Notes under the pieces: generated by a model | Databases searched by the model: none | What the model was told of the DNA's origin: nothing | Seen by the model: the letters and a program-made list of their open reading frames with translations, nothing else | Virus record (IMG/VR): IMGVR_UViG_3300043811_000176 | Span: 756-64,755 of that record | Length of the DNA stretch: 64,000 bases | DNA from: a virus | Taxonomy: Duplodnaviria; Caudoviricetes | Strand: one strand, 5' to 3' | Program-made: the position numbers and the translations under genes | Part shown: in pieces, positions 4,189 to 55,501 of the stretch | How the letters are laid out: every line of letters starts with the position of its first letter | Numbering within the stretch: position 1 is the first letter of the stretch

Positions 4189-4391
4189 TCGCTTGGTTTT
4201 TGCGTAAATGGCGCCACTGGCGAGACCCTCACGGGGAGCGACAGATTCTAGCCAAATACTCGACTCCCGGTCTCAAGCGTTCCGAACTATCGCGCTACGG
4301 CAAGATGTGGCACTTGCGCGAATGTTATAGGATGACTCCCGAAGAACGCGAGAAGTTGCTTTCGGAGATGTATCCCGATGCGCGTCGTTGA
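4185..4391 (+). CDS. hypothetical protein
   Basis: AGGAGG SD, ATGA coupling. Confidence 0.6.
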   Translation: MIAWFLRKWRHWRDPHGERQILAKYSTPGLKRSELSRYGKMWHLRECYRMTPEEREKLLSEMYPDARR

Positions 4392-4611
4392 AAAATTTGT
4401 TAACTGGTTCAGGCGATTCTTTGCATCAAATGAAGCGACGCGGCAGGAATTCGTGTCCGAAGATGCCAAGCGCCCTGATTTATTGCGTTATGAAGCGCGG
4501 GCGCGCGGGTATGAGGGCAACGCTTGCGTGACATGCGGTAACTTCACGATGGTTCGCAACGGCACTTGCCTCCGTTGCGATTCGTGCGGCAGCACGACGG
4601 GATGCTCCTGA
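4378..4611 (+). CDS. small protein resembling the C-terminal Cys/Zn-ribbon tail of class II ribonucleotide reductase (NrdJ)
   Basis: Ends 'EARARGYEGNACVTCGNFTMVRNGTCLRCDSCGSTTGCS', matching my recollection of alphaproteobacterial NrdJ C-termini. Confidence 0.75.
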   Translation: MRVVEKFVNWFRRFFASNEATRQEFVSEDAKRPDLLRYEARARGYEGNACVTCGNFTMVRNGTCLRCDSCGSTTGCS

Positions 4612-4612
4612 T

Positions 4613-4891
4613 ATGCACACCCCTGAATGGTTTGAAAAACGGGACATAAAGAAGTACCTCGATGAGCGCAAGTGCTGGTACTTCTCGCCCCAGATGGCCG
4701 GCTACGGTAAGGCCGGCGTGCCCGACATCATCGCGTGCATCGACGGAAAGATGGTTGCGATCGAGGTCAAGCGGGCCGGTAAGCCCTTGACGCCCATACA
4801 GGCGCGGATGCTGGAAGAGATCGCAGCGGCCGGTGGGGTGTGTTTCTGGGGAATCGCAGAGACGGTGATCGCGTGTTTGAAGGATTTGTGA
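4613..4891 (+). CDS. VRR-NUC domain nuclease
   Basis: 'GVPDIIACIDG..IEVKR..LTPIQ'. Confidence 0.88.
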   Translation: MHTPEWFEKRDIKKYLDERKCWYFSPQMAGYGKAGVPDIIACIDGKMVAIEVKRAGKPLTPIQARMLEEIAAAGGVCFWGIAETVIACLKDL

Positions 4892-4892
4892 A

Positions 4893-5021
4893 ATGAGCGA
4901 GAACACAGAGGCGATGCTCATGCTGCTGGGGCTGGTCGTCTTCTTCCTGGTTCTGCCCGCCAGGTGGGACCCCGCGGTCCGTCTCAAGGAGTGGAACGAG
5001 ACCAGGGGGAGGCGACGATGA
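4893..5021 (+). CDS. 42-aa single-TM protein (below ORF-track cutoff)
   Basis: MSENTEAMLMLLGLVVFFLVLPARWDPAVRLKEWNETRGRRR; fills the gap, ATGA-coupled to next gene. Confidence 0.55.
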   Translation: MSENTEAMLMLLGLVVFFLVLPARWDPAVRLKEWNETRGRRR

Positions 5022-5461
5022 CCTGGTGGCACGACCTGGCCGCGAGTCGGCCTCCCGACTTCGTGGTTGGGGCCGACAAGGAGAATCCCTACCTCCGCCG
5101 CTGGTGGGTCGTCCCGCGCAACAACCTCGCGAACGCCTACCTGCACCAGTTCCTGCGCTCGGACGATGACCACGCGCTCCACGATCACATGTACGTGAAC
5201 CTCTCCTACCTGCTGGAGGGCACCTACGTGGAGCACACGATCGCCCAGGGCGGGGTACACCACTCGCGGCGGTACCGGGCCGGAGATCTCCGCCTGCGCT
5301 GGCCGACGACGGCGCACCGCATCGAGGTCGCCGAGCCGTGCTGGAGCCTCTTCCTGACCGGCCCGCGGGTCCGGCAGTGGGGCTTCCACTGCCCAGGGGG
5401 CTGGCGCCACTGGCGCGAGTTCACGAGCGAGCGCGACGCGACCGGGAAGGGGTGCGAGTGA
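5018..5461 (+). CDS. cupin-fold (cysteine-dioxygenase-like) phage protein
   Basis: 'YLHQFLRSDDDHALHDH..SYLLEGTYVEH..AHRIE..WSLFLTGPRVRQWGF'. Confidence 0.7.
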   Translation: MTWWHDLAASRPPDFVVGADKENPYLRRWWVVPRNNLANAYLHQFLRSDDDHALHDHMYVNLSYLLEGTYVEHTIAQGGVHHSRRYRAGDLRLRWPTTAHRIEVAEPCWSLFLTGPRVRQWGFHCPGGWRHWREFTSERDATGKGCE

Positions 5462-5501
5462 TGATTATCTCCCGCGACGCCATCTACGCCTCCCCCAGTT
5501 A

Positions 5502-11794: not shown

Positions 11795-12160
11795 TTACGG
11801 GTTGACGACGGCCGTGAGGTTGGAAACGGCCGGGACAACCAGCGTGACGGGCGCGATCGTGACCGTCGCCGTGTTCGACATCGGTGAACAGTTCGCGGGG
11901 GTCATGTTGTCGCAAACCGTCACATTGAACGTGTGAGTCCCCGGCGGCAGGACAGTCGTGGTGAATGTATTGATGGCGCCGGACTGCGCAGCCTGGGCGC
12001 CGTCAATGAAGATGCTCACTTGCCCGACCGTGAGCGGCTGGCCGCTCTGGTAGGTCGGCGGATTTGTCCAGCTCAGCGTGACGCTGTCTGACGGCGGCGT
12101 CTGTGCGAAGGAGGGACCGGCGAAGAGAAGGGCGGCGGCGAGGATCATGGACTTTTTCAT
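11795..12160 (-). CDS. exported FN3/Ig-like protein
   Basis: Sec-type signal MKKSMILAAALLFAGPSFA|Q; 'SVTLSWT', 'LPPGTHTFNVTV', 'SPMSNTATVT'. Confidence 0.7.
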   Translation of the reverse strand: MKKSMILAAALLFAGPSFAQTPPSDSVTLSWTNPPTYQSGQPLTVGQVSIFIDGAQAAQSGAINTFTTTVLPPGTHTFNVTVCDNMTPANCSPMSNTATVTIAPVTLVVPAVSNLTAVVNP

Positions 12161-12348
12161 CGTGGGGGTGCTCCTGGATTGATTTTAGCGCTTAGGTTTG
12201 TGACCCGCGGAACATGATGTTGCACGGGCGGTGGACGGCACTGCTGGAGCCAAGGAAAGATCCAGCAATACCAGGGCTCGGCGTCTGCCGGAGCGACGAT
12301 CGAAAGAAACACCACGACGACCGTCAGCAACGGTAAAATCCTGGTCAT
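12157..12348 (-). CDS. small exported protein
   Basis: Signal peptide ending ADA|E; C-terminal 'VPRVTNLSAKINP'. Confidence 0.6.
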   Translation of the reverse strand: MTRILPLLTVVVVFLSIVAPADAEPWYCWIFPWLQQCRPPPVQHHVPRVTNLSAKINPGAPPR

Positions 12349-13385
12349 GATCTCAGCTGGCTGTGGGAGATCAGCGTCCCCTCGATCGTGTAGACGCGTT
12401 CATGCCGATCGTGCGGGACGGGCTCGATCGAGACGAGGTCGCCTTGAACGCGGATCAGCGACGGGCTCGGCACCGGCGGGACCGGCGTCGGCGGTGGAAC
12501 GGGCACGGGAGGAACGGGCGTCGGAGGCGTCGGGACCGGTGTGGGCGGCACGGGCGTCGGCGGCGGCGTCAGGTTCCCACCCATCGCGTTCCAGTCGGCG
12601 ATCATCTGCGCGAGGTCGAGGCCGTCCGGCGCGAGCCCGGTCGTCGCGTTCAAAGTGTCCTCATTGAACACGACGTAGAGTTCGCCACCGGCGGATTCCA
12701 CGCAATACTGCGCCAGGGCGGCCCAGGTCATCGTGCCAGTCATTCCCCAGGTCGAGATCACGATGCCCTGCGCGTTGTAGTCGATGCCGGGCGGGCAGTG
12801 CCCGTTGTCCGGGTCCGGCGCGCCCGCGACGTCCCACGTGAAGCCCGAAGCGGATGGAAACGGCGTAATCCACGCGTCCGGGAGGTCCAGGCCGGGTATG
12901 ACGTTCTGGAACAGCCAGATCGCCGTCATCACCTCGGTCTGGTTGGTCGGGTCGACCGCGAGCCACGCGATCGGTTTATGCGCGCTCCCGGCCGGGACGC
13001 CGTTCTGCTCCCACCAGGCCAGCGTGGTCTGGATATCGCAGCCCTGGTCCGTGCTCTCGTTGCCCGGCACGTAGCCGCAGGCGCCGGAGTAGATGGTCGT
13101 GATCTGCGGGTCGGTCAGCACCAGCGGGGACGCCGGCTCGTTGGCGGTCATGACGCCCTCGACATGCGCGATGCCCGCGATGACGCAGTCGCCCAGCGTG
13201 TCGTTCTCGTACATCTGCGAGAGCGGGGATGCCGCCAGCGCCGCGTAGTTGGTCGAGGCCGGAGGCGCGGGTAGGCCCGGCAGCAGGTAGTTTTTGAGGC
13301 TCAGGACGGGCCGGCGTGCCGCGGGGCGGCGACGCCCGAAGCGTGCGGTGCGCCCGTCTGGGCGGGTGATGGTTTTTACAGTCAT
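12345..13385 (-). CDS. papain-like cysteine peptidase with Pro-rich tail (putative lysin)
   Basis: 'NDTLGDCVIAGIAH' (Cys), 'NGHC' (His), 'STWG'; AGGAG SD. Confidence 0.7.
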   Translation of the reverse strand: MTVKTITRPDGRTARFGRRRPAARRPVLSLKNYLLPGLPAPPASTNYAALAASPLSQMYENDTLGDCVIAGIAHVEGVMTANEPASPLVLTDPQITTIYSGACGYVPGNESTDQGCDIQTTLAWWEQNGVPAGSAHKPIAWLAVDPTNQTEVMTAIWLFQNVIPGLDLPDAWITPFPSASGFTWDVAGAPDPDNGHCPPGIDYNAQGIVISTWGMTGTMTWAALAQYCVESAGGELYVVFNEDTLNATTGLAPDGLDLAQMIADWNAMGGNLTPPPTPVPPTPVPTPPTPVPPVPVPPPTPVPPVPSPSLIRVQGDLVSIEPVPHDRHERVYTIEGTLISHSQLRS

Positions 13386-13396
13386 GTATATTTCTC

Positions 13397-14635
13397 CTAT
13401 GCTTTGAGAGCCTGAAAGTGCATCGCGTCTCTGTAGGCCGGCGACCAGTCGCCGCCCCACGTCCAGCCCTCGCCCTTGAACGCCTGGACGATCAGGCTGT
13501 CTTCCTTAAACTTGGTTTGTGACGCCGTTGCGTGCTGCGGATTTGCCGCCGCGTTGAAGTCGAGCGCGCCGCCGTAGGCGTGCTCGCTCAGCGTCGAAGT
13601 GCCGGCGATCGGGCGATAGTTGTAGGAGCCGTCGAAGACATTGTATCCGAACGCATTGATTTGAGCCTGCGACTTTCCGCATTGCTCCCAGATATAGTCG
13701 AGCACGCGTCCGAGACTCAGTGCGCACTTTCGGTGAATCTTGATCCGGTCGGTCTTGGTTCCCTCGACGGTCAATTCCCACGGGCAGGTCACCTCGACGA
13801 GATTCGCCGCCTCCCATCCCGCCGAAGCTGGATTACCGAAGAAGGACATGGCTTGCGATTGAGATGGCCATATGTTCTTCTGGAGGACGGTCCCGCCGCT
13901 TAATGGTGCCGATGGCTGCGCTGGAGTTGGTGACGGCGGATTGCCTTTGTCGAGCACGGACACGAAGTCCCATGACGTGACGTCCGTGATGTCGTCGAGG
14001 TTGCCGGTCTTGCCGAGCGCGCTCCATGCTCCCGGTGTGAGATCGAGTCCGGCATGGTTGGTTCTCCTGCCAGTCGTGTCGGTTCCGGTCTCGGCCTGGG
14101 GACGGGCACCATGATCCCAATAGGGGTCGTGGGTATTCCAGGGGCCGACGTCGACGACGGGGCAGTCGACGGTGGCGCCACGGAAGAAGACCCGGATGAT
14201 GGGTGGGGTTCCAGGGAAATGATAGGGGAGCGCGGCCCCTGGTTTGTTGCTATCGATGAGCTTTCCGGTATAGGCGGAGAGCTTGGAGCTGACGCTGTCG
14301 CTGACCCCGGCGAAGCTGGTGGTGGTGATCCCTGTAAACCGGGGGATGCCGGGGGCGGGGGAAGGGACAGGGGCGGGGGAAGGGACAGGGCCAGGCTCGG
14401 GCGCGGTCGGGGCAGAGGGGTCGATGGTGGGTGGAACAGGAGCGACAGGGCCAGGGACAGCGGGCTGAGGAGGAGCAACCCCGCCAGTGGGAGGCTGTGG
14501 GATGGGGGCAGGCTGAGGGATGACGGGAGCATTTCCGCCTCGCGCAAGAAAGCTGAGCAAGCTGAGCAAGTACCACGCAAGGAGGCCGTCCCGCAGGACG
14601 ACTATCAGCAGAGCAAGCGTGGCGTCAATCATCAT
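13397..14635 (-). CDS. endolysin: N-terminal TM, Pro linker, RlpA/DPBB-like domain, M15 peptidase
   Basis: 'VVDVGPW..GLDLTPGAW'; 'YNYRPIAG..SEHAYGGALDFN..WGGDW..DAMHFQ'. Confidence 0.85.
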   Translation of the reverse strand: MMIDATLALLIVVLRDGLLAWYLLSLLSFLARGGNAPVIPQPAPIPQPPTGGVAPPQPAVPGPVAPVPPTIDPSAPTAPEPGPVPSPAPVPSPAPGIPRFTGITTTSFAGVSDSVSSKLSAYTGKLIDSNKPGAALPYHFPGTPPIIRVFFRGATVDCPVVDVGPWNTHDPYWDHGARPQAETGTDTTGRRTNHAGLDLTPGAWSALGKTGNLDDITDVTSWDFVSVLDKGNPPSPTPAQPSAPLSGGTVLQKNIWPSQSQAMSFFGNPASAGWEAANLVEVTCPWELTVEGTKTDRIKIHRKCALSLGRVLDYIWEQCGKSQAQINAFGYNVFDGSYNYRPIAGTSTLSEHAYGGALDFNAAANPQHATASQTKFKEDSLIVQAFKGEGWTWGGDWSPAYRDAMHFQALKA

Positions 14636-14940
14636 GAAGTGAACCCCCCGACTGCAGGCGGGTTCAAGATCGACCCTACCTTGACTGCGGGCGGTTTCAG
14701 GCTTGCCACCCAGGCATTGAAATCCGTTACCGGGTTGCCGGTCAGGTGAAGCATGGCCGCAGACGTGAGCAGCCCCGCAGCCTGCTGACTAGCTGTGGCC
14801 GTCGGAACGCCCGCAGCGACTTGCTGATTAAGAAGGCCCTCGACCGCCTTGACGACCGCCTGGAACTGCGGATCGTTGAGCAGCGCAAGAACTGCGGGGA
14901 TGAGCGAGGTCAGGGCCGTGATGATAGGTCCGAAGCTCAT
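14632..14940 (-). CDS. hypothetical protein (lysis module)
   Basis: Lies between holin-like gene and endolysin; ATGA coupling. Confidence 0.6.
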   Translation of the reverse strand: MSFGPIITALTSLIPAVLALLNDPQFQAVVKAVEGLLNQQVAAGVPTATASQQAAGLLTSAAMLHLTGNPVTDFNAWVASLKPPAVKVGSILNPPAVGGFTS

Positions 14941-14947
14941 GGCGGTT

Positions 14948-15274
14948 CTATCTCCTCTGCGATGTGGTTGGAGAAAGTGGGGCACTGCTGGCCGGAACAA
15001 CAGTCGGGATGCTGCTATCAGCCGCCATCGCCTGGATCGCCGGCGACGCGGCGGGCGTCACCTGGATGGGGGCGACACCGGGGACTTGGCTCGCCGTCTG
15101 GACGACCTTGCTGTCGCGGTGGATGAAGAGACCCCACACGAACGGCACGGCTATGCCGGCCGCGCTGACGATCGTCTGGGCGGTGTTTCCGTTGATGATT
15201 CCGTCGGTCGCCGCTGCGCTCGCGGCCGCACCGATGGTGCTGGTTACGAAGCTTATCCAGGTATTCGGGTTCAC
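14948..15274 (-). CDS. putative holin
   Basis: Two hydrophobic helices 'WISFVTSTIGAAASAAA..IVSAAGIAVPFVWGLF'; GTG after GGGAG; upstream of endolysin. Confidence 0.6.
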   Translation of the reverse strand: MNPNTWISFVTSTIGAAASAAATDGIINGNTAQTIVSAAGIAVPFVWGLFIHRDSKVVQTASQVPGVAPIQVTPAASPAIQAMAADSSIPTVVPASSAPLSPTTSQRR

Positions 15275-15470
15275 AGATAATCTCCCATGATGAGGATGAT
15301 CACGCATAAGAAAAACAGAAGTCCGAACAACATGCGGTCCTCCATAGCTCACGGCCGCCTATTTCTTTTCCCAAACAAAAACGTCAATATAATCAGGACT
15401 CCAGCAACAGCGTTTACCGTCGCCACGGCATGTTGAAAACGCACATAGGACACGATGGTCTCCGATATCA

Positions 15471-15668
15471 TCATTTGGGCTCCCCCGGTTTATCGGCTGC
15501 TTGCCGCTCCAATTCGCGGATGCGATTCTGTAAGGCTGCAAGTTGCATTGAGCAAGCCTTCTGCGCGATGCTGAGCTGCCATTCGGTCCATTGCAGCGCC
15601 GGATCGGGCGTAATGGTCTGTGCAATAGCAGATGTGCTCAGTAGAAGCAAAATAATAAAGCTGCGCAT
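15471..15668 (-). CDS. small exported coiled-coil protein (possible fibre chaperone)
   Basis: Signal MRSFIILLLLSTSAIA|Q; follows fibre gene. Confidence 0.6.
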   Translation of the reverse strand: MRSFIILLLLSTSAIAQTITPDPALQWTEWQLSIAQKACSMQLAALQNRIRELERQAADKPGEPK

Positions 15669-15677
15669 GCGAACTCC

Positions 15678-17045
15678 TTATGGCGCGTTGGTCGTCCACG
15701 CAGGCACCCAATACGCTGTAGTGCCTGCGTATATTTTTACCCAGGCCGCGCTGTTGGCGCTGTTGGCGCTCGACATTTTCACTGTGCCGGTTCCAGAGCT
15801 GATAGTGGTGCTGGAAACGCTGCTGAGCGTATTAGCTGACGCAGTTCCGCCCGGATCGGCGGTGGCCACAAGGCCGCCTCCCGTAATCGTGGACGACGCG
15901 GCGACGGCACCGGTAACATCAAGAGCTACACCAGGCGTTTTGTTGATGCCGACACGGTCGTTGGTGGTGTCCACGACAAGGATGGAAGTCGATAACGCCG
16001 CATTCTTGACTATGACTCCGGTTGTGCTGTCGACGACAGGGGCGATTACGTTGGAACTCAGAGCTACATAGCTAGCGGTGACGTTACTGCTGAATTGTCC
16101 GGCTCCCGTAACGTCGAGCGTAACCGCGGGATTCGTCTTGCCGATTCCCACTCTTCCGTTCGTCGTATCCACATTGACCACGACGGTGCTCGCGGCGGCG
16201 TTTGTAATTTGTATGGCTGTCGTGGAATCTGCGGACGGAAAAATGGTGCCGGTCGAAAGATCGAGCGCGGTCGCATTAATTTGCCCGGAAAAATTTCCTA
16301 GAACAGAGTAGATATTGGACCACCGGAGCGACGTGATGCCGAGGGACCAATAATTATTGGTGCTCGGCGTGAAATTACAGGACGTGCCAACACAGGTTTC
16401 GCTCAGAATGCGATTGGTCGCGGTGGCGCCTTCGTAAACCTCAAAATCGATCAGACCTTGCTCGGCGCCCGCTGTTGCTACTATGTAACCGCCGTTTATA
16501 TAAGCGCCAGTGTGGTTGACCGCGTTTGAATTGTTTACGTTGAATAGAAGGCCCCCACCAGCCCCGTTGGTCCCAGCGGTATTATTCAAAACCAACAATG
16601 GATTTCCGGCCCCGGAAATCTCGCTTATGGTCAACGTGTTGGTCGTGATCGCGGTAATCGCGCTCAGGCTTTCCACCCAAGCCGTAGTCGCTACATTCGT
16701 CGTTGAATCGCCGGCCGCTCGCGTCGGAGCAGTCGCACCCCCGTTTAAATTCTGGACTCCCGGCCAGTTGTTGGTCCCGGTCGCCGACAAGCCGCAATCG
16801 ATCAAGGACGGCGTCGAGCTGGTGGCATTGGCGCAGACGAAGTCGTTGATCGTGAAATTACCGTTTAGGGTCGCGCCGCCGCCGATCGCGCCGCCGTCGC
16901 CGATGACGCCGTTGGTCAACCACTCCGCTATGTGTCCAGGAGTCACGACTCCGGATTGCTGCACGGATTGAGCGTGCGCAGAAGACGCCAGCGCGAGGCC
17001 AAAAAGGGCTTGCGACAAAAACTTCATGGTCGAATCTGGAAGCAT
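15678..17045 (-). CDS. tail-fibre-like protein with signal peptide
   Basis: Fibre motifs 'APTRAAGDSTTNVATTAWV', two 'DTTNxRVGIxKT..LDVTG' repeats; leader MKFLSQALFGLALASSAHA|Q (start 17045 or 17027). Confidence 0.75.
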   Translation of the reverse strand: MLPDSTMKFLSQALFGLALASSAHAQSVQQSGVVTPGHIAEWLTNGVIGDGGAIGGGATLNGNFTINDFVCANATSSTPSLIDCGLSATGTNNWPGVQNLNGGATAPTRAAGDSTTNVATTAWVESLSAITAITTNTLTISEISGAGNPLLVLNNTAGTNGAGGGLLFNVNNSNAVNHTGAYINGGYIVATAGAEQGLIDFEVYEGATATNRILSETCVGTSCNFTPSTNNYWSLGITSLRWSNIYSVLGNFSGQINATALDLSTGTIFPSADSTTAIQITNAAASTVVVNVDTTNGRVGIGKTNPAVTLDVTGAGQFSSNVTASYVALSSNVIAPVVDSTTGVIVKNAALSTSILVVDTTNDRVGINKTPGVALDVTGAVAASSTITGGGLVATADPGGTASANTLSSVSSTTISSGTGTVKMSSANSANSAAWVKIYAGTTAYWVPAWTTNAP

Positions 17046-17053
17046 GTGATTCT

Positions 17054-42624: not shown

Positions 42625-42625
42625 T

Positions 42626-43437: not shown

Positions 43438-43453
43438 CGACGCCTCCGACTTG

Positions 43454-43687
43454 TTACAGGCCGCCGAAGCCAGTAAATTGACCCTGCACCATCAGTGAGT
43501 TTACCACAACTTTATCCATATGAGTCTGGCGTGGAGACCCGTTCCACAGTTCTTCCCGAGTTTGCACCAAAGTGCCGACTTTAGCACCGCCAATTTCTTG
43601 CGACACCCATGGCGGATTCTTAACAACCTCTTGCACCGCTACCGGCACCGCAGTAAGCCAACCGAACAACGTTCTACGATTCAACAC
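43454..43687 (-). CDS. twin-arginine-leader protein ending in an MCP-like segment
   Basis: 'MLNRRTLFGWLTAVPVAV'..'MVQGQFTGFGGL'; GGAGG SD. Confidence 0.7.
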   Translation of the reverse strand: MLNRRTLFGWLTAVPVAVQEVVKNPPWVSQEIGGAKVGTLVQTREELWNGSPRQTHMDKVVVNSLMVQGQFTGFGGL

Positions 43688-43688
43688 C

Positions 43689-45620
43689 TCAATACCTCCG
43701 ACCTTGTCCGTAACGCCATGCTTGCCGATTCATCGCCACGGCCTCCTGCCGGCGCGCAGCGCCCTTGGCCGCGAAGAAATTGTCAAGGTTATTCTGATTG
43801 AAAAGCGCCACCTGGTCAAGAATCGACAGACGCTGTCGGGCTTCCTCCGCGGCGCGCGTGCGGCGCTGCCCGACGAGCCCTTGCCGGATCTTGGTCGCCC
43901 AGTAGTAATTGGCGAGCGCCATCGCCACCGCGCGATCGTCACGAAGCGAGGTCGGAGCGCCAATCGAATCTCCATCGCGCGAGATCGATCGCAATTCCTC
44001 GATCAGGTCGAGCGAGCGGATACGAAGCTTGCCGGCCGAGGCGATATCCCGGAGCTGCTCCATGATCGTGATCTTCAAACGCGTATTCGTGAGCCAGTGA
44101 TAATTGTATCCGGCGCCCATCGAATCCGGACGCGTGTATATGTAAGTCCGTACATTCCTGAAAATGTTTGCGAGTCCCTGCTCCTCTACGGATTTGCGAG
44201 CGCTCGGCGAGTTCTCGATATAGAACTTCAAAGCTTTGATCTCGTTGAAGACGGCGGTTCCAGGACCGTTGAGTTCGAGGATGTATCGGCACTCGGCCCG
44301 AGGACTGGCGCCGTACCAACCCATGAGTGCGGCCAAGGTCCATGCGAGGTGTCTTGTAGTTTGAAGGGGCCAGGCGTACTCGGCGACTTGATCAACTCCA
44401 TCGGCATAACATCGGAGCACCTCGATAGCCGAGTTGCAGTTATTCTCGTTTTCTCCGTAGGCGGGATCGAGTGCAAAGACATATACTCCCTCCGAATTAG
44501 GCTCCTCCCACACCTTCAACTCCGTCGAAGGGAGGTTGTTGGCGCGATAAACCTTCATGTCGACGAATTCCTCGCCGGCCACGAAAAGATAAGGCTGGAA
44601 CTTCTTGTTGACGTACTTGTTGGTGATGTCGGTCAGGTTGTTGGAAGCGAAGAAAACCGAGCCGGTTTGCTGGAAGCTCTCTTCCTCCGTCCAGGGCTGC
44701 TCCTGAATTCGCAGCGCATTACCTTCAAAATTAAAATCGCTGCCCTCCTGATCCGCCTGCCCGAGGCTGGGATTCATCTTGCGGCGATACCAGGCAAGCT
44801 GCTCGATATCGACATCAACGTCGTACCGTTCCTTCACCTCCTTGATCTTGGCTGCTTCCTTGGCGGTCGGAGGATCCTTGGCGTAAAGATGATAATCGAT
44901 ATCGGCAGGCGTGATGCGCTGCGTACCCTTGCTCCACCAACCGAGGAAAATGCACTTACAGTGCATGGGATCGCTGCGCGCATCCTTCCAAAGCGTCCAC
45001 CAGCGATTAAAACCGCGTGCCGTCGATTCGTAGATGTAAAGCCGGTCAGGGTTGATGTCGGAGAGCGAGTTCTCGAAGGCTTCGAGACCTTCGTCGTTAT
45101 CCCAGGAACAAAGCTCGGACAAGTGCGCCACGGACAGACCGACCGATCGCCCGAGCGTTCCCGACGTCTTGGACTTCTTGACGCCGGCCGACATGAACAG
45201 AACCTTGGAATCGTTGGCAAGCGCCAAGCCGGTGCGGTTGTTCGAAGTGATGGCAGGAAAGCGAAGCGCGGGCGGAAGGTCGTTGATCATTACCTCCAGC
45301 TCGGCGCGGGACTCGGACTTATTCGAATCCGTGTCGAAGACGATCGCACCCTTTAGCCCCTTGTGCACGCCAAGGAAAAATATGATCAGAGCGCGGATGA
45401 TCGTCGAGATGCCGAGCTGACGGGACTTGAGAATATAAATCTTGTGAATGCCGGCTTCGAGAGCGTCAAAAATCTGGGTGATGACATCGATCTGTCCCTG
45501 GTACAGGTTGTCGCCAAGGCAAATCTGCCCCGCGTCCTTCGAATTAACGAAGCAGCTGCGAAGGTAAATGTAGAACGCAGTCTCGACGCGGTCTCGTTTA
45601 AGTGCTGACCAGCCTGCCAT
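43689..45620 (-). CDS. terL: terminase large subunit
   Basis: Walker A 'LKSRQLGIST', Walker B 'HLSEL', 'ESTARG', nuclease 'ALDPAYG'..'DDRAVA'. Confidence 0.92.
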   Translation of the reverse strand: MAGWSALKRDRVETAFYIYLRSCFVNSKDAGQICLGDNLYQGQIDVITQIFDALEAGIHKIYILKSRQLGISTIIRALIIFFLGVHKGLKGAIVFDTDSNKSESRAELEVMINDLPPALRFPAITSNNRTGLALANDSKVLFMSAGVKKSKTSGTLGRSVGLSVAHLSELCSWDNDEGLEAFENSLSDINPDRLYIYESTARGFNRWWTLWKDARSDPMHCKCIFLGWWSKGTQRITPADIDYHLYAKDPPTAKEAAKIKEVKERYDVDVDIEQLAWYRRKMNPSLGQADQEGSDFNFEGNALRIQEQPWTEEESFQQTGSVFFASNNLTDITNKYVNKKFQPYLFVAGEEFVDMKVYRANNLPSTELKVWEEPNSEGVYVFALDPAYGENENNCNSAIEVLRCYADGVDQVAEYAWPLQTTRHLAWTLAALMGWYGASPRAECRYILELNGPGTAVFNEIKALKFYIENSPSARKSVEEQGLANIFRNVRTYIYTRPDSMGAGYNYHWLTNTRLKITIMEQLRDIASAGKLRIRSLDLIEELRSISRDGDSIGAPTSLRDDRAVAMALANYYWATKIRQGLVGQRRTRAAEEARQRLSILDQVALFNQNNLDNFFAAKGAARRQEAVAMNRQAWRYGQGRRY

Positions 45621-45637
45621 TCCGGCAGGTTAGCAGG

Positions 45638-45904
45638 TCAACGGAACCCCTGCAACCGACGCTGCTGGTCCTTGAGTTCCTCCAATTGAAGCTGGAGCTT
45701 CGTCTGGATCGTCGAATAGAACTGGGCGAGATCGCCCTTGGGGTCCACGACCAGGAACTCGATCGGATCGACACTACCGGGAGGTACGATCACGCACGCG
45801 CCGCCGAATTCCGCGGGATTGCGCTCGATGCGGTCGGCCATGGCGCGGAACCGATCCGCCAGCTTTCGGTCGAGGGCCTCGATGAGGGGTTGGCCGTCGT
45901 TCAT
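45638..45904 (-). CDS. hypothetical protein
   Basis: Directly upstream of terL. Confidence 0.6.
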   Translation of the reverse strand: MNDGQPLIEALDRKLADRFRAMADRIERNPAEFGGACVIVPPGSVDPIEFLVVDPKGDLAQFYSTIQTKLQLQLEELKDQQRRLQGFR

Positions 45905-46206
45905 GTCAACCTCTCTTTGTGCTTCTCGACGACCTTCGCGAGCTTCTTCTGAACTTGCTCGTCGAGCTTCGCGCCTTCAATATCGAAGCATCGAGCCAAG
46001 AGTTCCAGGTACACGCGAATATCGGCAAGCTCGTCCCTGATTTCTTCCGTGAGATCGGCGCCGTCCCGCCACCGCTTCTTAATCATGTTAGCGAGTTCGC
46101 CGGCCTCTCCGCACAAGGCCAGTGCTAGAAATCGTTCGTCCTCGGAGGCATATGAAGGAAACAGGTGTTTAGTCATGCGCTCGTGCAACGAGTAGATATC
46201 GATCAT
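45901..46206 (-). CDS. MazG-like NTP pyrophosphohydrolase
   Basis: 'LCGEAGELANMIKK..DELADIRVY'; may start further up at 46308. Confidence 0.85.
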   Translation of the reverse strand: MIDIYSLHERMTKHLFPSYASEDERFLALALCGEAGELANMIKKRWRDGADLTEEIRDELADIRVYLELLARCFDIEGAKLDEQVQKKLAKVVEKHKERLT

Positions 46207-46304
46207 GCCGTATCCTTTCCAGCCTCTACCGCCAGACGCAACTCGCGCCCGTATTAATTCGTACGCGATCGACGCTTTTTCGAAGATCATCGCTTGCGTC
46301 GTAA

Positions 46305-46520
46305 TCACCGATAGCTGTGTCCATAATATGGTTTTATCTCGCTATTGAGCATTGCCCCAACCGAAGGCGCATTGGCAACGCGGAGCGCCACATCCTCGGG
46401 CACACCCTCGTAAGCGGAGACCTTGCCCGATTTAGACCAAGTTATGAGCAGCTCGCCTGTGTCAGAATCAAATCCGACCTCGCTGACGACGGACGAATAA
46501 ACGGATTGGGACCAGCTCAT
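46305..46520 (-). CDS. KTSC domain protein
   Basis: 'SSVVSEVGFD..YEGVPEDV..APSVGAMLNSEIK'. Confidence 0.85.
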   Translation of the reverse strand: MSWSQSVYSSVVSEVGFDSDTGELLITWSKSGKVSAYEGVPEDVALRVANAPSVGAMLNSEIKPYYGHSYR

Positions 46521-46582
46521 GTCACCTCCTCGAACTTGTCGAGAATGACCTTGGATTTCCCCGTACCCATGTGATCACTCAT
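46517..46582 (-). CDS. 21-aa micropeptide with Walker-A-like motif
   Basis: MSDHMGTGKSKVILDKFEEVT; ATGA overlaps at both ends. Confidence 0.5.
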   Translation of the reverse strand: MSDHMGTGKSKVILDKFEEVT

Positions 46583-46764
46583 GGAGTGGCTTCCCAAATC
46601 GCGACAAAGATGAGCGTGCAAACAAGCGCCGTAGCAAGAATAGCAATGATGATGCCTGGGGCGTGCGAAGGTTCCTCAATCTTGTGGCTTATTTCAGCAA
46701 TAACTTCCGGTGATATTCCTCGGAACCGCAATTCATCTTCGATAGTTTTTTTCGTCTTTGCCAT
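46579..46764 (-). CDS. small protein with C-terminal TM
   Basis: GAGGAG SD. Confidence 0.6.
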   Translation of the reverse strand: MAKTKKTIEDELRFRGISPEVIAEISHKIEEPSHAPGIIIAILATALVCTLIFVAIWEATP

Positions 46765-46974
46765 CCAATTCTCCTCATAGCCGTTGGCCTCCCCGATCGC
46801 GCGAAGCCTTCCCGAGCGTCCGCCGGCAAAGTTACCACCACCACACGCCGCACCGCCACCCATTTTGCATAACTCCTGTTTTGGCTACACCACTACAGCT
46901 CCACAAACCGCGTCGTCTGCGGCTTGGCCAAATACAATTTTTCCCTGGCCCGCGACATTAACGCCTCCTAAAGG

Positions 46975-47160
46975 TGCCGTCTCTCCGGCTGTCACGACTA
47001 CGGCGCGCTGCAGACCTTCCTCTCAGTCGAACCGCCTTCGCGTCTGTTACCCTGCCAACCTAGTTGGTCGTCGTTCACCGCGGCCATATCGTGGGCAGTT
47101 CACGTCCCGTCGCTAGCGGTTCCTCACGACGGGCTTGCCGGATTCGAAACCCCGCGGCAG
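46975..47160 (-). ncRNA. candidate multi-stem structured RNA
   Basis: Five consecutive hairpins in a non-coding gap (see findings). Confidence 0.45.
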
Positions 47161-47162
47161 TA

Positions 47163-47489
47163 TCACTTTAATTTCTCTCTCTTCAAGGCGTCGGCCATGA
47201 TGTCGCGTACTATCGGGAAAAGTATATCGTCAGTATCCTCAATCGTCTCGTCCGAAAACGCAAGAAACGGAATCTTCATGATCTTGCGATCCGGCAGCGG
47301 CTCCATCATCGCGTTGACCCGGCACAGCACGATCCGACGCCGATTTCGCGCGTGCTCACCCAAAGTCCAGAACTCGCCCTCGCATTCGTTGTTATAGGCG
47401 TTACGAATATGAAAGAACCTGTCGGGATGGTGCTTGAAGTAGACGCCGTCCGCGCGTTCCCACAGCTTCGCAAGGGCTCTGTCGTTCAC
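47163..47489 (-). CDS. hypothetical protein
   Basis: GTGA coupling. Confidence 0.65.
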   Translation of the reverse strand: MNDRALAKLWERADGVYFKHHPDRFFHIRNAYNNECEGEFWTLGEHARNRRRIVLCRVNAMMEPLPDRKIMKIPFLAFSDETIEDTDDILFPIVRDIMADALKREKLK

Positions 47490-48517
47490 GGCGGAATATC
47501 CTCCCACGCACCATGCACCTTCATCTCGGTCGAAAAGAGGATGTGCATGTTCTCCGGGCCGCTCAAACAGTGCCCGCGATCGATGAACGACGGTCGGCTG
47601 CCGTCATCGTGCAGCATGAATGCCGAGTAGCCCTTGCTCGCCATGTAATCGCGCAATTCCAACTGAGACGATCCGAATTCACGAAGGGTGCGATCATTAC
47701 ACTCACAGGTGATGAAGTCGATTCCCTTGATCAGAATATCCTGCGCGCCGACTAGAGCGTGTTCCTCGGCGCCCTCGATATCGAGCTTCAGCAAGCGACA
47801 AGGATTCTCGTACATCGAACACCAGCGATCCAGCGTGAGCCCGTTGCAAGGAATCTTGCTGATCTCGCCTTCGACCGGCATGAGGCTGCATAATCCGGTA
47901 TCCGGATGTACGTGCAGGACAACTTCCGAATTCTCGCTCCACAGGGGACGATTTACCGCGTTCACGTTCTCCATGCGGTTAAGGGCGATGTTGGCGCGAA
48001 GCTTGTTGAAGTTGGTCCACTGGGGCTCGAACGCCTCGACATGACCGCGCTCGCCGACGAGACGCGCCATCAGAAGAGTAAAGAACCCGATATTAGCGCC
48101 GCCATCGATCGCGAAATCGCCTTGCCTCAGCACGCGACGCATGAGATGCACGACCTCGGGCTCGCAGGCGCCGTTGTGGCGAAGAAACGCCGCAGTGTTG
48201 GCATCCGAATGGAACTCGGGATCCCACGTCATGTCGAACGTGACGCGCTTCCCGTTAATCGTCATGTCGACGTGCATCGGGGGGTGCACAATCGAGCGTT
48301 TGGCAGCAAGCGCGTTCGCGAATGCTTGATCGCGCTCCTGCGTCTCGCGCTTGTAAGCCTCGCGACCTTCGATCGTGATGCAGTAATTGTGCTCGCTGTG
48401 CTTGTACATCAGGCCGCGCGCAGTCAAGGATTCGACAGGCGCTTGCCAGCGGCCGATCGGCGCCATCGCCATGCCTTCAGAAGCGATCATCAAGACAGCG
48501 AGTTCGTCGTCGGTCAT
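47486..48517 (-). CDS. FkbM-family methyltransferase with N-terminal extension
   Basis: 'IDGGANIGFFT', 'AFEP', 'LLKLDIEGAE'. Confidence 0.9.
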   Translation of the reverse strand: MTDDELAVLMIASEGMAMAPIGRWQAPVESLTARGLMYKHSEHNYCITIEGREAYKRETQERDQAFANALAAKRSIVHPPMHVDMTINGKRVTFDMTWDPEFHSDANTAAFLRHNGACEPEVVHLMRRVLRQGDFAIDGGANIGFFTLLMARLVGERGHVEAFEPQWTNFNKLRANIALNRMENVNAVNRPLWSENSEVVLHVHPDTGLCSLMPVEGEISKIPCNGLTLDRWCSMYENPCRLLKLDIEGAEEHALVGAQDILIKGIDFITCECNDRTLREFGSSQLELRDYMASKGYSAFMLHDDGSRPSFIDRGHCLSGPENMHILFSTEMKVHGAWEDIPP

Positions 48518-52070: not shown

Positions 52071-53299
52071 GCGACCGGCCAAAGTTTGGAATGATCGAAC
52101 TCGTAGGGGACCAAAGGCTGCGGTTCCTGACACGACAGGCCGTAAAGGCAAGCGGAACCAGCCAGCACCGTCAACTTTAGCGGACGCCAAGACACCTGTG
52201 TCGGGCACACCACCTGGGTAATCTGGTTCGACGCCTCAGGGAGAAGCGTGGGACGAACGGTGTAGTTGGACTTCGCATCGGATATCTCGATCTGACCGCC
52301 CTTCTCGCCGCCCATCGCCATGAAGCGACACGCGCCGGAAACGAAACACGAGAAAGAAGCGCCGGGGAATCCTCTCGCAGCAAAGCCGCCGAGGCCGGGA
52401 GACCATTTGAGATGCCAGTCGCCGATCCAATCGGAACCTCGAAGGCCGTCGAGCTGGTGCGCGAAGACGATCTCGACGCCGTCGTCGCCTCGGAAGCGCG
52501 TGCGCGGGCCGCCGATATCGAGCTTGCCTTTCCGAATCAAAGCCGTGCCGTCCACGTAAGTCTTAAACGCTACGTCGTTGCGCCGATCCTCGACGGGGGC
52601 ATCGGCGATCTTGAGACCCTGCTCGGAGAGCGAAGGCTTCTGACCGATCATCTCGACGGGAGATGGAACCAAAGCGAGAGAGGCGAGACCGCGCGACGCA
52701 AGCATCGCATCGTTCGACCAGTCGGGCGTGATCCAGTGCTCATTCGTCTTGAACGCCCAATACGTCCCGATGTCTATCCCGCAAAGGCGAGCGAAGACAC
52801 GGCGATTCTCGGTCGTCCAGGCGGTGCGGAAATTACGAAGGGTCAGCTCGGCGGCTTCTCTGGTCAGGATTTGCATGCCCCAGCCGATATTATGCATAAG
52901 AGCATACCCATCTCGTTGCACAAGAATACGATCGGTATATGCCCTCGCGGAAACCGCTCCCACAGAAAGACCGTCGGCTTCGCCGCGCTTGAACAGGGCC
53001 ATTGCCGGTCCGAACCAATCGGGATGTAGAAGGACGTCATTTTCGACGAGGCCAATGAATTCATAACCTTGCTCCAGTAAAGTTGTTAAGGCGTAAACTA
53101 CCGCGGGATCAGCGCCACCGCACACATTCAGTCTCACCTGTGAAAATTGGTAACGCTCGTGAAGCTTATGACCCTTTGGCGTATCGCTGCCATCGAACCA
53201 CCAAAGGTCAAAATCTTTTGAGCCAAGCAGCGGCTTAACCGAACATTCGGTCAGTTCACACCGATCTTTTGTCAAAAAAGCAATAGCTGTTTTTTTCAC
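52067..53299 (-). CDS. GT-A fold glycosyltransferase
   Basis: 'FLTKDR', 'FDGSD', 'LVENDVLL'. Confidence 0.65.
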   Translation of the reverse strand: MKKTAIAFLTKDRCELTECSVKPLLGSKDFDLWWFDGSDTPKGHKLHERYQFSQVRLNVCGGADPAVVYALTTLLEQGYEFIGLVENDVLLHPDWFGPAMALFKRGEADGLSVGAVSARAYTDRILVQRDGYALMHNIGWGMQILTREAAELTLRNFRTAWTTENRRVFARLCGIDIGTYWAFKTNEHWITPDWSNDAMLASRGLASLALVPSPVEMIGQKPSLSEQGLKIADAPVEDRRNDVAFKTYVDGTALIRKGKLDIGGPRTRFRGDDGVEIVFAHQLDGLRGSDWIGDWHLKWSPGLGGFAARGFPGASFSCFVSGACRFMAMGGEKGGQIEISDAKSNYTVRPTLLPEASNQITQVVCPTQVSWRPLKLTVLAGSACLYGLSCQEPQPLVPYEFDHSKLWPVA

Positions 53300-53826
53300 G
53301 CCGCGAACTCCCCATAAATCTCTCGCATAGCTTTTTCTCGGGCCGCATTTGCCTCTTCGGGGCTATCAAAAATACCGATGTATCTCGTCCCCTTACCACC
53401 GGCTTGCGCGACCCACTTATTCTTATTTTTGTGCTTGTGAACGCCGTAAAAACCGCTCGGCGGTAACGCACGTTCGCGATTAGCGCCATTCTGCGCTGGT
53501 GTCGCTGCACGCAGATTACTCCAACGATTGTTTCCTTTATCGCGATCCGAATGATCTATAATCCGCGGCGGTTCCTCACCAGTTATCATTTTCCAAATGA
53601 CACGATGCGCCGCACAGTACATATTGTCCAGATGCCCCGCTCGGTAACCCTTGGAGCTAACGCTGAAAGCCTCACACCCGGCAAACCGAGTGTTCCACAT
53701 CTGCGCTACTTCGCTGCTTGGAAAATGTTCCGCCGGCCGATATTTCCAATATAGCTTTCCTGTCTCTCGCTCGTACAAGAAGCATTCCATTAGATAGTGA
53801 AGTGATGGAAGCTTTCGCAACTTCAT
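53296..53826 (-). CDS. HNH-AP2 homing endonuclease
   Basis: 'YERETGKLYW', 'IDHSDRDKGNNRWSNLR', 'IGIFDSPEEA'. Confidence 0.92.
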   Translation of the reverse strand: MKLRKLPSLHYLMECFLYERETGKLYWKYRPAEHFPSSEVAQMWNTRFAGCEAFSVSSKGYRAGHLDNMYCAAHRVIWKMITGEEPPRIIDHSDRDKGNNRWSNLRAATPAQNGANRERALPPSGFYGVHKHKNKNKWVAQAGGKGTRYIGIFDSPEEANAAREKAMREIYGEFAA

Positions 53827-54833
53827 TTCATCACCTCGTCGCAGTCATCGCACCATGCGAGGCCCAACTCCTGCAACTTGCCGCGCTCGGGCATCCAGTC
53901 GGGGAGGTTGGTGAACATGACGCGCAGCATGCCAATGGCGGACTGGGACTTCGTAAACGTAAATCCGTCCAACCACGCAGCGAACTCCAAAATATGTTCA
54001 GAAGCCCATTGCTCATCAGCAAGGTCTTTCAACAAATTATGAGGATTCCGCTGCTGTAGAACGAACGGCTGCCCGAAATGGACGTGATAGCCGAACTCTC
54101 GCATAACCCGTTGCGCAACAAGTCCCGCGTATATGTCATCTCCGCGCTTATACGCGGGCACCATCAAGAAACAAGGGGCAAGTTCGCGGACGAAAGCAAT
54201 GTTCTGAGAGTTGAGAGGTGCATAGGTCTCCTTCGGATCAGCGACGATGCCGGCGCGCAGAAGCTCGCTGACCTGATGCACCTCGGGGCGCTGCGAGATG
54301 CGGTCGACCGCGGAAGTGTCGGGATCCCCGAGGATCGTGCCTTGGGCGACGCCGATCCGGGCGCCGGTCACCGCATAAAAACTCGCGAGACCTTCACCAA
54401 ACTCGTGCTGCGGAAAACCGCGCTGAACGACACGGGGGAAACAAAGCGACGCCGGATCGAACCAATCGCCTAGCGATTGGGCCTTAATCCCATAAAACGT
54501 ACCATCGAATGCCGAGGTAAAATCCTCGAAATAGCGAGTATTCAAAGGAATATTATCGTCATCGATCGAGACGATGAGTTCCGCGCCCCATTTGAGGGCT
54601 TCGAGAAGAGCAATGTTGCGGCGGGCGATCGTGTTCCAACCAATCAATTTGTCGCACGCATGCGACGTCTCTCCGATCCGCATGCAATTCGGAAGGTTCT
54701 CGCAAAAATCCCACGCTTCCTTCGGAGTCTTATCGTCCATCGCGACGAAGAACCGCACATCCGAATCATGCGCGCGATAAAGTGCGAGCACTCGCGGAAC
54801 GTTGATGGTCGTGGTGATTAATCCAACTTTCAT
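53823..54833 (-). CDS. STELLO/RGP(GT75)-like glycosyltransferase or sugar mutase
   Basis: 'ITTTIN', 'DDKTP', 'SIDDDN', 'RGFP', 'GDPD', 'NSQN', 'RGDDI'. Confidence 0.75.
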   Translation of the reverse strand: MKVGLITTTINVPRVLALYRAHDSDVRFFVAMDDKTPKEAWDFCENLPNCMRIGETSHACDKLIGWNTIARRNIALLEALKWGAELIVSIDDDNIPLNTRYFEDFTSAFDGTFYGIKAQSLGDWFDPASLCFPRVVQRGFPQHEFGEGLASFYAVTGARIGVAQGTILGDPDTSAVDRISQRPEVHQVSELLRAGIVADPKETYAPLNSQNIAFVRELAPCFLMVPAYKRGDDIYAGLVAQRVMREFGYHVHFGQPFVLQQRNPHNLLKDLADEQWASEHILEFAAWLDGFTFTKSQSAIGMLRVMFTNLPDWMPERGKLQELGLAWCDDCDEVMK

Positions 54834-55015
54834 TTTATATGCTCTTCCGGTAGAGGCGACGCAACTTCTTTCTTCTCCTTGATCTCCAACCACTGCTTGA
54901 GGATCATCTGGATCAGCCCAGTGAGCGAATAGCGCTCGCGATCGGCGAATTTGCGCAGACGCTTCTTGTCGTGCTCGGTCAGTCGGATCGATGTCGGGTA
55001 TTCGCGACGGGACAA
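54830..55015 (-). CDS. ribbon-helix-helix regulator
   Basis: 'PTSIRLTEHDKKRLRKFADRERYSLTGLIQMILKQWL'; TTG after GGGAG. Confidence 0.75.
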   Translation of the reverse strand: MSRREYPTSIRLTEHDKKRLRKFADRERYSLTGLIQMILKQWLEIKEKKEVASPLPEEHIK

Positions 55016-55025
55016 GGCGGCTCCC

Positions 55026-55080
55026 AAGAAAAAAGGCGGCCGGACTGCGGTGGGGGACACGGAGGTTGGCCCGGCCGCCT
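55026..55080 (-). terminator. intrinsic terminator/attenuator or sRNA 3' end
   Basis: GGCGGCCGG..CCGGCCGCC followed by TTTTTT. Confidence 0.6.
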
Positions 55081-55128
55081 TGGGACAGAACCCTCTCGGT
55101 CGAGGCCGAGCCGGAGGGCCGAGGGAAA

Positions 55129-55157
55129 TGTAGTGCCGGCGACTACAAGATGTCAAG
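55129..55157 (-). promoter_or_regulatory. promoter with TGTAGT-N7-ACTACA operator
   Basis: TTGACA-N17-CTACAT; palindrome at 55129-55147. Confidence 0.6.
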
Positions 55158-55501
55158 GGTTGATCTTATGAACTCGGCTGCGACTTGCGGGACGATCGCG
55201 TTGCCGTAGGCGCGCAACTTAGATGCTCTCTTGAGTACCCCATGAGCCAGCGGGAATGATCCGGGCTCAACTGGCCGCGCTTTTCCGTCGGTGCAGGGGA
55301 GCCAGTCGCAGGGGGACCAGAAGGACTCTCGTGACTCCCATGCGCGTCCGGGAATCCGCGCTTGTTCGCTCTCGGCGTGCTCCACGCCGCCTTCGCCGCA
55401 TCCGCGCTCAACGCGCCGTTCGCTTGGTTCGGGCCGCCCTTGCTGCCGTCCGTCGCGCGGGGGGTGTTCCAAGTTGCCAACGCCACCGTCTTGCGGGAGT
55501 T
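55143..55501 (-). pseudogene. 3' remnant of a phage C5-cytosine methyltransferase with its overlapping alternative frame
   Basis: 'DGKARPVEPGSFPLAHG..LRAYGNAIVPQVAAEFI'; overlapping 'WNTP..WSTP..HSRWLMGY'; no motif I/IV upstream. Confidence 0.75.

Follow-up and report, generated by a model that had tools for sequence, protein, structure and literature searches.

Small open reading frames resembling parts of larger proteins in a Caudoviricetes phage genome: candidate capsid-like accessory genes, a free-standing NrdJ tail and gene remnants

The phage genome and its relatives

Virus record IMGVR_UViG_3300043811_000176 (Caudoviricetes) is 64,755 bp long, with a completeness of 100% (CheckV). Bases 756-64755 of this record, a stretch of 64,000 nucleotides, were analyzed here as the window, and positions below are those of the window. 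This soil phage encodes a family A DNA polymerase, an SNF2 helicase, a primase-VapE protein, a serine recombinase, a sugar-modification cluster, a tape measure protein and the large terminase terL (43689-45620; weak phrog_675 match). It also contains six small open reading frames (ORFs), named here by their lowest coordinate, which an initial annotation had read as isolated motifs of larger proteins: segments of the major capsid protein (40635 and 43454), the tail of the ribonucleotide reductase (RNR) NrdJ (4378), a terminase-like motif (21507), a helicase Walker A motif (46517) and a methylase C-terminus (55143). All six exist where they had been placed. They do not form one repertoire of decoys, as had been proposed, because they share no common design, position or origin, and three of them are remnants or chance. 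Rather, the six ORFs are probably three different things, namely accessory cassette genes (40635 and 43454), a free-standing NrdJ tail (4378) and debris or chance ORFs.

The source of the copied segments is the major capsid protein, which is encoded at 36580-37626 (-) and starts with ATC at 37626 behind AGGAGG. Since many relatives of this protein exist in IMG/VR (160 stretches matched, 157 confirmed and 80 kept, many of them on 60-68-kb contigs), a comparative test was possible for each of the six ORFs. In the following, L-numbers denote the relatives' loci, P-numbers database proteins and X-numbers soil metagenome runs. Near-identical DNA is present in soil metagenomes of several studies, and window positions 40001-48000 show no DNA similarity to known phages. 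Eleven of the capsid relatives are whole phage-sized contigs in metagenome-assembled bins of several phyla, none of them an evident integrated prophage. All six ORFs sit in lineage-variable stretches flanked by conserved genes. A scan of the window found no tRNA genes and matched no Rfam families; split genes, introns and stop-codon recoding were rejected as sources of gene fragments on this ground and because the relatives show insertions and deletions, not interrupted genes.

ORF 40635 and a family of leader-plus-N-arm proteins

ORF 40635 (40635-40997, +; 120 aa) lies between the convergent genes 40240-40638 and portal, a junction that varies from -67 to +349 nt across 51 loci. It begins with a leader resembling twin-arginine translocation (Tat) signals (NRREFIKGALAAWAALPIA), behind which lies a segment resembling the capsid N-arm (LPIAKIT...ELTAITRKAFLPRL, 40683-40781, +). 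Residues 15-49 are identical to the N-arm at 16 of 35 positions and residues 55-76 to the capsid C-terminus at 9 of 22, in collinear order. Taken alone, these matches (28.9 and 25.4 bits) are not above the scores of shuffled proteomes, for which the top five scores of ten all-against-all comparisons span 25.8-37.7 bits; the self-comparison proposed with the initial annotation thus leaves the capsid matches of both 40635 and 43454 within the range of chance. A hidden Markov model (HMM) of 71 distinct capsid proteins ranks 40635 first behind the capsid protein itself (E=0.024 among 1658 six-frame ORFs). It aligns at positions 13-32 and 290-312 only, without the full capsid body (~350 aa), and the second, C-terminal segment has no significance by itself (domain i-E 4.3).

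The relationship becomes clear at the level of a family. Applied to 37,710 ORFs of the relatives' loci, the capsid HMM recovered small ORFs in L102 (3.6e-6), L092 (6.7e-5) and L064 (1.7e-3), all of which have MLNRRSLITGL-like starts and contain SLYGDLTALTRQAFVPRLFV. A profile of seven leader-plus-N-arm ORFs matched 121 of 1112 candidate proteins at E<=0.01; these are 52-159 aa long, all unnamed and without a Pfam domain. As delimited by such profile matches, the family of 40635 is one of at least 120 small proteins. Among the 120 members listed, 115 have RR within the first 25 residues, 105 contain AAPA[IVL][IVL] and 93 contain [TV]R[KRQ][AE]F[VLI]P. The family consensus reads RRxFITGLxSLxAAPAIVRAxSLMPVKA, a variable linker and LYxxLxxxTRxAFVPRLFVQxY; the copies correspond to capsid residues ~1-45, with LYxELxAxTR(R/K/Q)AFVPRLFVQxY homologous to residues ~12-45. 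Members are mutually 30-50% identical yet keep two nearly invariant blocks, and their genes occupy four different junctions.

Conversely, the family HMM gave 98 matches on ~39,400 six-frame ORFs, 87 of them capsid proteins (E 1e-12 to 1e-6) and the other 11 small ORFs. All 87 capsid proteins on hand were matched, and the homology is therefore reciprocal. As for 40635 itself, 82 of the 120 listed members match it by BLASTP (E<1e-3), and an HMM of 32 members, made after removal of the 88 that match either window ORF, places it second behind the capsid protein (E=0.0013, 1658 ORFs), with an alignment running from NRREFIKG to AFLPRL. The ORF has the leader as well as SLMPVK-like and TRxAFxPRL blocks, and its AAPAIV and SLMPV blocks are degenerate (AALPIAKITPS). 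On these comparisons the capsid likeness of 40635, which the initial annotation had pointed out, is confirmed, through family evidence only.

The family proteins thus carry an N-arm homologous to that of the HK97-fold capsid protein and differ from the latter in being N-arm only, without a capsid body, and in their codons. Over 14 codons of the N-arm core of 40635, 27 of 42 nucleotides are identical to the capsid gene, and the similarity has therefore been kept at the protein level. A recent DNA duplication of capsid segments was ruled out, as self-blastn detects no DNA repeat that the capsid gene shares with 40635 or with 43454. In 40635, the final ~40 codons are antisense to the 3' end of the portal gene and are not conserved. 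They lie outside the conserved protein, because the allele P0223 (93 aa, from another sample), which is 78% identical to 40635 over 87 residues, has a different end and because the X2 contig carries a 15-letter insertion at 40876-40878. With the family profile, 15 near-complete relatives divide into 3 with leader-plus-N-arm genes, 6 with the leader on other ORFs and 6 with the capsid match only. In L064 the leader-plus-N-arm gene stands at the place of a MazG-like gene; the window has a MazG-like pyrophosphohydrolase at 45901-46308 (-; E=2.8e-6).

ORF 43454 and its cassette at the terL junction

ORF 43454 (43454-43687, -; 77 aa) has an RR leader, VLNRRTLFGWLTAVPVAV, and the C-terminal end MVQGQFTGFGGL. 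It begins 2 nt past the terL stop and has a canonical ribosome-binding site (GGAGG, 7 nt, GTG). Its end MVQGQFTGFGG is identical at 10 of 11 positions to capsid residues 68-78 (MVQGQFTGYGG); this copy, noticed in the initial annotation, is real as a string and marginal statistically (26.6 bits; capsid HMM E=0.099). The capsid HMM aligns 43454 at positions 66-78 only, a different segment from that found in 40635. At the DNA level the two 11-mers differ at 7 of 33 positions, with six synonymous codon changes and one non-synonymous change. The middle of the ORF (GGAKVGTLVQTRE), which an alignment had suggested as kin of the N-arm, is not supported as such by HMM.

Together with an ORF for a 70-aa helix-turn-helix (HTH) protein (43225-43437, -; GGAGG ribosome-binding site), 43454 forms a two-gene cassette of 464 nt (43225-43688, -). 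The cassette is bounded by a 13-nt repeat, TCGGAGGTATTGA, with copies at 43689-43701 (terL end) and 43225-43237 (end of the HTH gene), which also supplies the ribosome-binding site of the next gene. Matches of the HTH ORF to YdaS_toxin (7e-5), HTH_3 (3.4e-4) and Aca2_YdiL (7.8e-4) are all under the Pfam cut-offs. In runs X4 and X5, which belong to one study, one contig each joins 43224 to 43689, so that 464 nt are skipped and 13 letters fit both sides. The cassette is 95-99% identical to its counterparts in L081 and L084, whereas the adjoining terL is 76% identical, which points to recent exchange. Across 62 loci, the genes flanking the terL junction abut or overlap in 31 and are separated by a gap of 23-602 nt in the other 31, and these gaps hold HNH-like ORFs, small hydrophobic ORFs or 43454-like ORFs.

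ORF 43454 falls into a subgroup of eight (the window, P0182, P0173, P0184, P0170, P0167, P0172 and L082) with ~45 N-terminal residues in common and swappable tails; the capsid 11-mer is present in 4 of the 8, in one case between different flanks. On the reading preferred here, 40635 is a true family member, and 43454 probably belongs to a smaller sister group that has a comparable leader and exchangeable tails, of which one type copies the capsid 11-mer. Both would be small accessory genes carried by short inserted cassettes, located at junctions that differ among related phages. ORF 43454 appears to be a fast-evolving or weakly constrained cassette gene, and its link to the main family is only suggestive.

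The cassette resembles moron/hot-spot and acr-aca-type units in that it is short, recently exchanged, polymorphic for presence or absence and located at a gene junction, with a small ORF paired with an HTH gene. It differs from them in the sub-cut-off HTH matches, in that it is not known to have an anti-defence activity and in that the 13-nt repeat re-creates the stop of the upstream gene and the downstream ribosome-binding site. A separate feature of the terL junction is a conserved stretch of ~100 nt (in one frame ...RPHNEGRSGGPTTEGG...) in L001, L002, L011, L081 and L085, just upstream of the homologue of 42626-43228; it is found in the closest relatives regardless of the cassette, and the window has no Rfam match.

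The twin-arginine leader

Both ORFs carry a twin-arginine motif near the N-terminus (NRREFIKG in 40635 and NRRTLFG in 43454). Tat models are the sole families that recur across members (PF10518 in 18 of 70 at E<=0.1, best 4.3e-4, and TIGR01409 in 9 of 70), with scores mostly below the curated cut-offs. Like Tat signal peptides, the family leader has RR followed by F/L, a weakly hydrophobic stretch rich in Gly and Ala, and an AxA-like end (VRA). Unlike them, the leader plus SLMPVK is far more conserved, with R4, R5, G10, A16-R22, M27 and P28 conserved at 90% or more, and the passenger is a 30-45-residue copy of the N-terminus of a cytoplasmic capsid protein. Other passengers bear this leader in the relatives, among them an ORF of 398 aa with beta-helix-like repeats, one of 288 aa that is rich in Gly, Ser and Thr, and ORFs of 116 and 76 aa. 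Such a modular leader on unrelated passengers fits a targeting signal, and the predicted location of the proteins is the membrane or periplasm. In an atlas search the nearest clusters were unnamed viral ones, with Tat-signal clusters at scores <0.9 only, which are leads only.

Targeting could alternatively be to the virion, if the leader were a tag and the N-arm copy docked the protein on the inner capsid surface, to be packaged and ejected into the next host. The T4 internal proteins offer a precedent, with a short capsid targeting sequence (CTS) as conserved N-terminal leader on diverse passengers in hypervariable loci, and the present leader is likewise a single conserved one on many passengers in hypervariable loci and more conserved than usual signal peptides. 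However, its hydrophobic character, RR motif and AxA-like end make it look like an export signal, unlike the short CTS; its recurrent matches are to Tat signals only; and beta-helix passengers are unlikely contents of a phage head. We regard targeting to the virion as quite improbable.

A location at or beyond the membrane also bears on the decoy mechanism of the initial annotation, in which the six ORFs would saturate cytoplasmic sensors of capsid, terminase, helicase, RNR and methylase. In favour of this mechanism, two of the ORFs contain copies of capsid segments, and 43454 is followed by the small HTH gene with its weak Aca2-like match, a layout that recalls anti-defence operons. Nevertheless, the mechanism sits badly with a leader that predicts export or membrane anchoring, away from the cytoplasm in which sensors such as CapRel, Lit and Avs act. 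Sensors of this kind are activated by ligand binding, so a ligand would be expected to trigger them rather than to saturate them harmlessly. Three of the six ORFs are, moreover, remnants or without a real motif relationship, and a literature search, which was not exhaustive, found no report of capsid-fragment decoys. A cytoplasmic decoy repertoire consequently seems very unlikely to us.

A free-standing NrdJ cysteine-rich tail

ORF 4378 (4378-4611, +; 77 aa) is a stand-alone, NrdJb-like cysteine-rich domain (CRD) of NrdJ, lying between 4185-4391 and 4613-4891. The two flanking ORFs are conserved in relatives and adjacent to each other in L092 and L100; the second (+) resembles VRR-NUC/Hjc nucleases (E=1.2e-4). 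The start of 4378 has GGAG 10 nt upstream and overlaps the upstream gene by 14 nt. The reading of 4378 as an NrdJ tail in the initial annotation is borne out: residues 33-77 match the C-termini of class II RNRs in 7 phage records, the best with 60% identity (E=3e-10), and phmmer gave 1966 matches at E<=1e-3 to phage and cellular class II RNR C-termini. In phrog_84 the alignment covers positions 922-975 of 975. The six cysteines (50, 53, 64, 67, 70 and 76 of 77; spacing 3-11-3-3-6) lie at the extreme C-terminus, and the array is invariant in an alignment with P0005, P0153, P0154 and P0004.

The ORF is present in none of 103 relatives' loci. Orthologues were found in P0005, P0153 and P0154, which are 81 aa long, 63-66% identical to 4378 and share its W/F/R-rich N-terminal half; they come from contigs of 63,723, 61,487 and 3,280 bp, the first two of phage size. 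Most other short matches are on contigs of at most ~2 kb and are probably cut NrdJ genes. Viral-contig scans with 4378 and P0005 returned no relatives, and a metagenome scan gave 16 loci, all of them tails of long NrdJ proteins or ORFs cut by the contig end. No match to the RNR catalytic domain PF02867 was obtained anywhere in the 64,755 bp of the genome; the control gave matches in 12 of 14 genomes.

According to Loderer et al. (PMC5704485), the six C-terminal cysteines of NrdJ coordinate zinc and relay electrons, and those of S. nassauensis NrdJ are C920, 923, 933, 936, 939 and 945, spaced much as in 4378. The same authors describe the CRD as a separate gene, nrdJb, in the split NrdJa+b of P. 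aeruginosa, and report that a separately expressed CRD did not rescue the activity of CRD-less NrdJd in vitro (PMC5704485). ORF 4378 is likewise a separate polypeptide with the six-cysteine CRD array. It differs from NrdJb in that this phage has no nrdJa or other RNR catalytic gene and in that the W/F/R-rich N-terminal half is unrelated to NrdJ. The product of 4378 would probably act on a class II reductase of the host.

Remnants and chance ORFs

The remaining three ORFs have other origins. ORF 55143 (55143-55589, -) is the 3' remnant of a C5 cytosine methyltransferase gene, and only ~55143-55486 resembles the gene of the relatives. Its reading as a methylase C-terminus was correct, since it matches phrog_363 at positions 218-314 of 327 (E=5e-12) and ends with motif X (GNxxxP; YGNAIVPQVAAEF). 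At this locus motifs I (FxGxG) and IV (PCQ) are absent, and motifs I-VIII are missing as a whole. In contrast, the C5 methyltransferase of L092, L101 and L102 is complete: it contains motifs I, IV and VIII, likewise ends in GNAIVPQVAAEF, and matches phrog_363 at positions 10-314 of 327 (E=1.4e-80) as well as PF00145. The 3' remnant follows from these relatives carrying the full gene while PF00145 has no match in the whole genome; DNA similarity of the window to the relatives' gene is limited to 55166-55310.

The methylase locus of these relatives has a further peculiarity, in that it contains two nearly coextensive ORFs in different frames (L092:642-1628, -; L101:3502-4900, +; L102:3721-4629, +). 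Frame a (325 aa) is the full-length phrog_363 match (E=1.4e-80). Frame b encodes 283-388 aa, including W-x-T-P repeats and SRWLMG, and aligns with phrog_1008 over positions 12-286 of 329 (E=5e-27). Both phrogs carry the label DNA methyltransferase. Where L092 and L101 differ in the central part of the gene, the changes tend to fall on the third codon position of frame b. The gene may be dual-coding or undergo frame switching, and its remnant in the window spans 55143-55549.

ORF 21507 (21507-21734, -; 75 aa, or 56 aa from an internal Met at 21677 preceded by AGGAG and 7 nt) reads through an insertion of 124 nt (21541-21664, -) that the window shares with L090 and that L104 lacks (columns 237-360). 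On either side of the insertion stands a copy of the start of gene 21248-21553 (ATGGTCGACCCGG and ATGAGCGACGCGA); the ORF reads from the first of these copies across the inserted DNA and enters the next gene out of frame. The initial annotation had likened it to a terminase. It does contain LEPWQ, but no relation to a terminase could be detected: Pfam and PHROG yielded no terminase for it, tblastn against 50,697 phage records gave nothing at E<=1, the phage's own TerL lacks L.PWQ, and no longer homologue was found among 31 candidates. The only homologue recovered was the window's own 56-aa gene call (P0277).

ORF 46517 (46517-46621, -; 34 aa, TTG start) was judged to be no gene. It had been taken for the Walker A motif of an SF2 helicase, which fails, as it reads DHMGTGKS and does not fit the pattern [AG]xxxxGK[ST]; it shares GTGKS with the Walker A motif of the primase-helicase, and beyond these five residues nothing is common to the two. 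It has no relatives in the loci, and the flanking gene 46305-46520 is complete and conserved. Comparison with the relatives thus identifies 55143 as a deletion remnant, 21507 as an insertion artefact and 46517 as chance, and neutral debris, which the initial annotation had named as its alternative, fits these three and probably not 40635, 43454 and 4378. Likewise, the idea that small genes encode single pieces of larger proteins stands for the latter three, which have relatives elsewhere, and not for the former. The ribosome-binding sites or translational coupling ascribed to the ORFs were found for 43454, 4378, the internal Met of 21507 and 40635 (as a GTGA overlap), and none was seen in the sequence for 46517 and 55143. 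As half of the proposed repertoire is recombination debris, motif-only ORFs should not be accepted without comparison to relatives.

It could be argued that all six ORFs are neutral debris of recombination hot spots, open by chance and without a functional product. All of them sit in lineage-variable stretches, and the genome has other scars, such as the capsid start MPLPGIG, which occurs twice 63 nt apart, and the duplicated start at 21553/21677; half of the terL junctions compared contain gaps, some with HNH endonuclease-like ORFs. Several further observations weigh against 40635 and 43454 as functional, exported capsid copies. In the first 45 codons of 43454, synonymous and non-synonymous changes number 5:19 (L082) and 4:20 (L001), as compared with 36:21 and 40:20 in terL, and the N-terminus thus gives no sign of purifying selection. 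The existence of near-identical phage contigs without the cassette, from two other runs, makes the cassette dispensable. The 11-mer match of 43454 lies within the chance range of the all-against-all comparison, and its 6:1 synonymous bias is partly due to ascertainment, because the match was noticed by amino-acid identity. An HMM lacking the 43454 subgroup does not find 43454 at E<=10, so that its kinship to the main family rests on ~10 leader residues (MLNRRxLxxG start). ORF 40635 starts at its GTGA overlap with the upstream stop and has no ribosome-binding site, its match to the Tat signal PF10518 (16.1 bits, E=0.011) is under the cut-off of 22.7, and 43454 has no Tat-signal Pfam match. The full leader-plus-N-arm gene occurs in only 3 of the 15 near-complete relatives, and an AlphaFold2 model of the family from 70 sequences consists of helices only and is of low confidence (pLDDT 66, pTM 0.28).

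Debris open by chance is nonetheless improbable as an explanation of all six ORFs. It does not account for a family of at least 120 members that keeps two nearly invariant blocks at 30-50% identity, for a capsid copy conserved as protein while its codons differ, for the six cysteines kept by 4378 and its 63-66% identical 81-aa orthologues, or for the canonical ribosome-binding site of 43454.

Possible roles

Taking 40635 and 43454 as accessory genes, we tentatively propose, with some doubt, that the leader may bring the peptide to or through the inner membrane and that the capsid copy may compete for a binder of the N-arm, in conflict with related phages or with host sensing. A more specific version, which we think rather unlikely as a whole, combines two separate parts: a peptide copied from the capsid N-arm (in certain alleles from other segments) would be exported by the host Tat pathway and act as a mimic at the membrane or outside the cytoplasm, and 4378 would be a phage NrdJb re-wiring the class II reductase of the host. 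If this were true, the exported mimic could serve to keep out related phages, to blind a host system that senses capsids or as a released signal of infection, and phages of this group would possess a mobile family of swappable effector genes derived from capsid fragments. The literature search mentioned above likewise found no description of a leader-plus-capsid family or of Tat-exported phage exclusion proteins. Should the leader-plus-capsid proteins be made and exported, they would be the first case known to us in which part of a phage's own capsid protein serves separately as a mobile accessory protein. They would then provide a handle on whatever recognizes the N-arm, be it the scaffold protein (37697-38299), adjacent capsid subunits, a host sensor or a rival phage. 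With the free-standing NrdJ tail, it would be simple to test whether such a domain works in trans on an enzyme of the host.

Other features of the genome

The ATC start of the capsid gene contrasts with ATG, GTG or TTG in relatives, although ATT or ATC is found in three loci (L077, L025 and L088). A second copy of the capsid start, 63 nt upstream (37624-37695, -), has an ATG and MPLPGIG and opens a 19-aa ORF that ends with TAG; the X2 contig has 859 other letters at 37641-37731. The non-conserved 77-aa ORF at 40003-40236 has no relatives in the loci compared, and in the X3 and X5 contigs window positions 39997-40233 are swapped for 11 letters. In the tail-fibre region (11795-21251, -), six predicted proteins have Sec-like signal peptides ending AxAQ; among them are proteins of 455 and 595 aa, the latter with SRRRLL.

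Two paralogous ORFs at 33705-34244 (+) and 53296-53826 (-) are 36% identical over 166 aa (E=4e-28), and one of them lies on the opposite strand inside the structural operon. An H-N-H-like motif seen by eye suggests that they may be homing-endonuclease-like genes. Finally, repeats occur as a 60-nt-periodic array at 59500-59892 inside ORF 59477-59953, as a perfect 49-nt repeat with copies 60 nt apart at 38565/38625 (38565-38673), and as short GC-rich repeats at both record ends (window 63704-63992 and genome bases 1-300).

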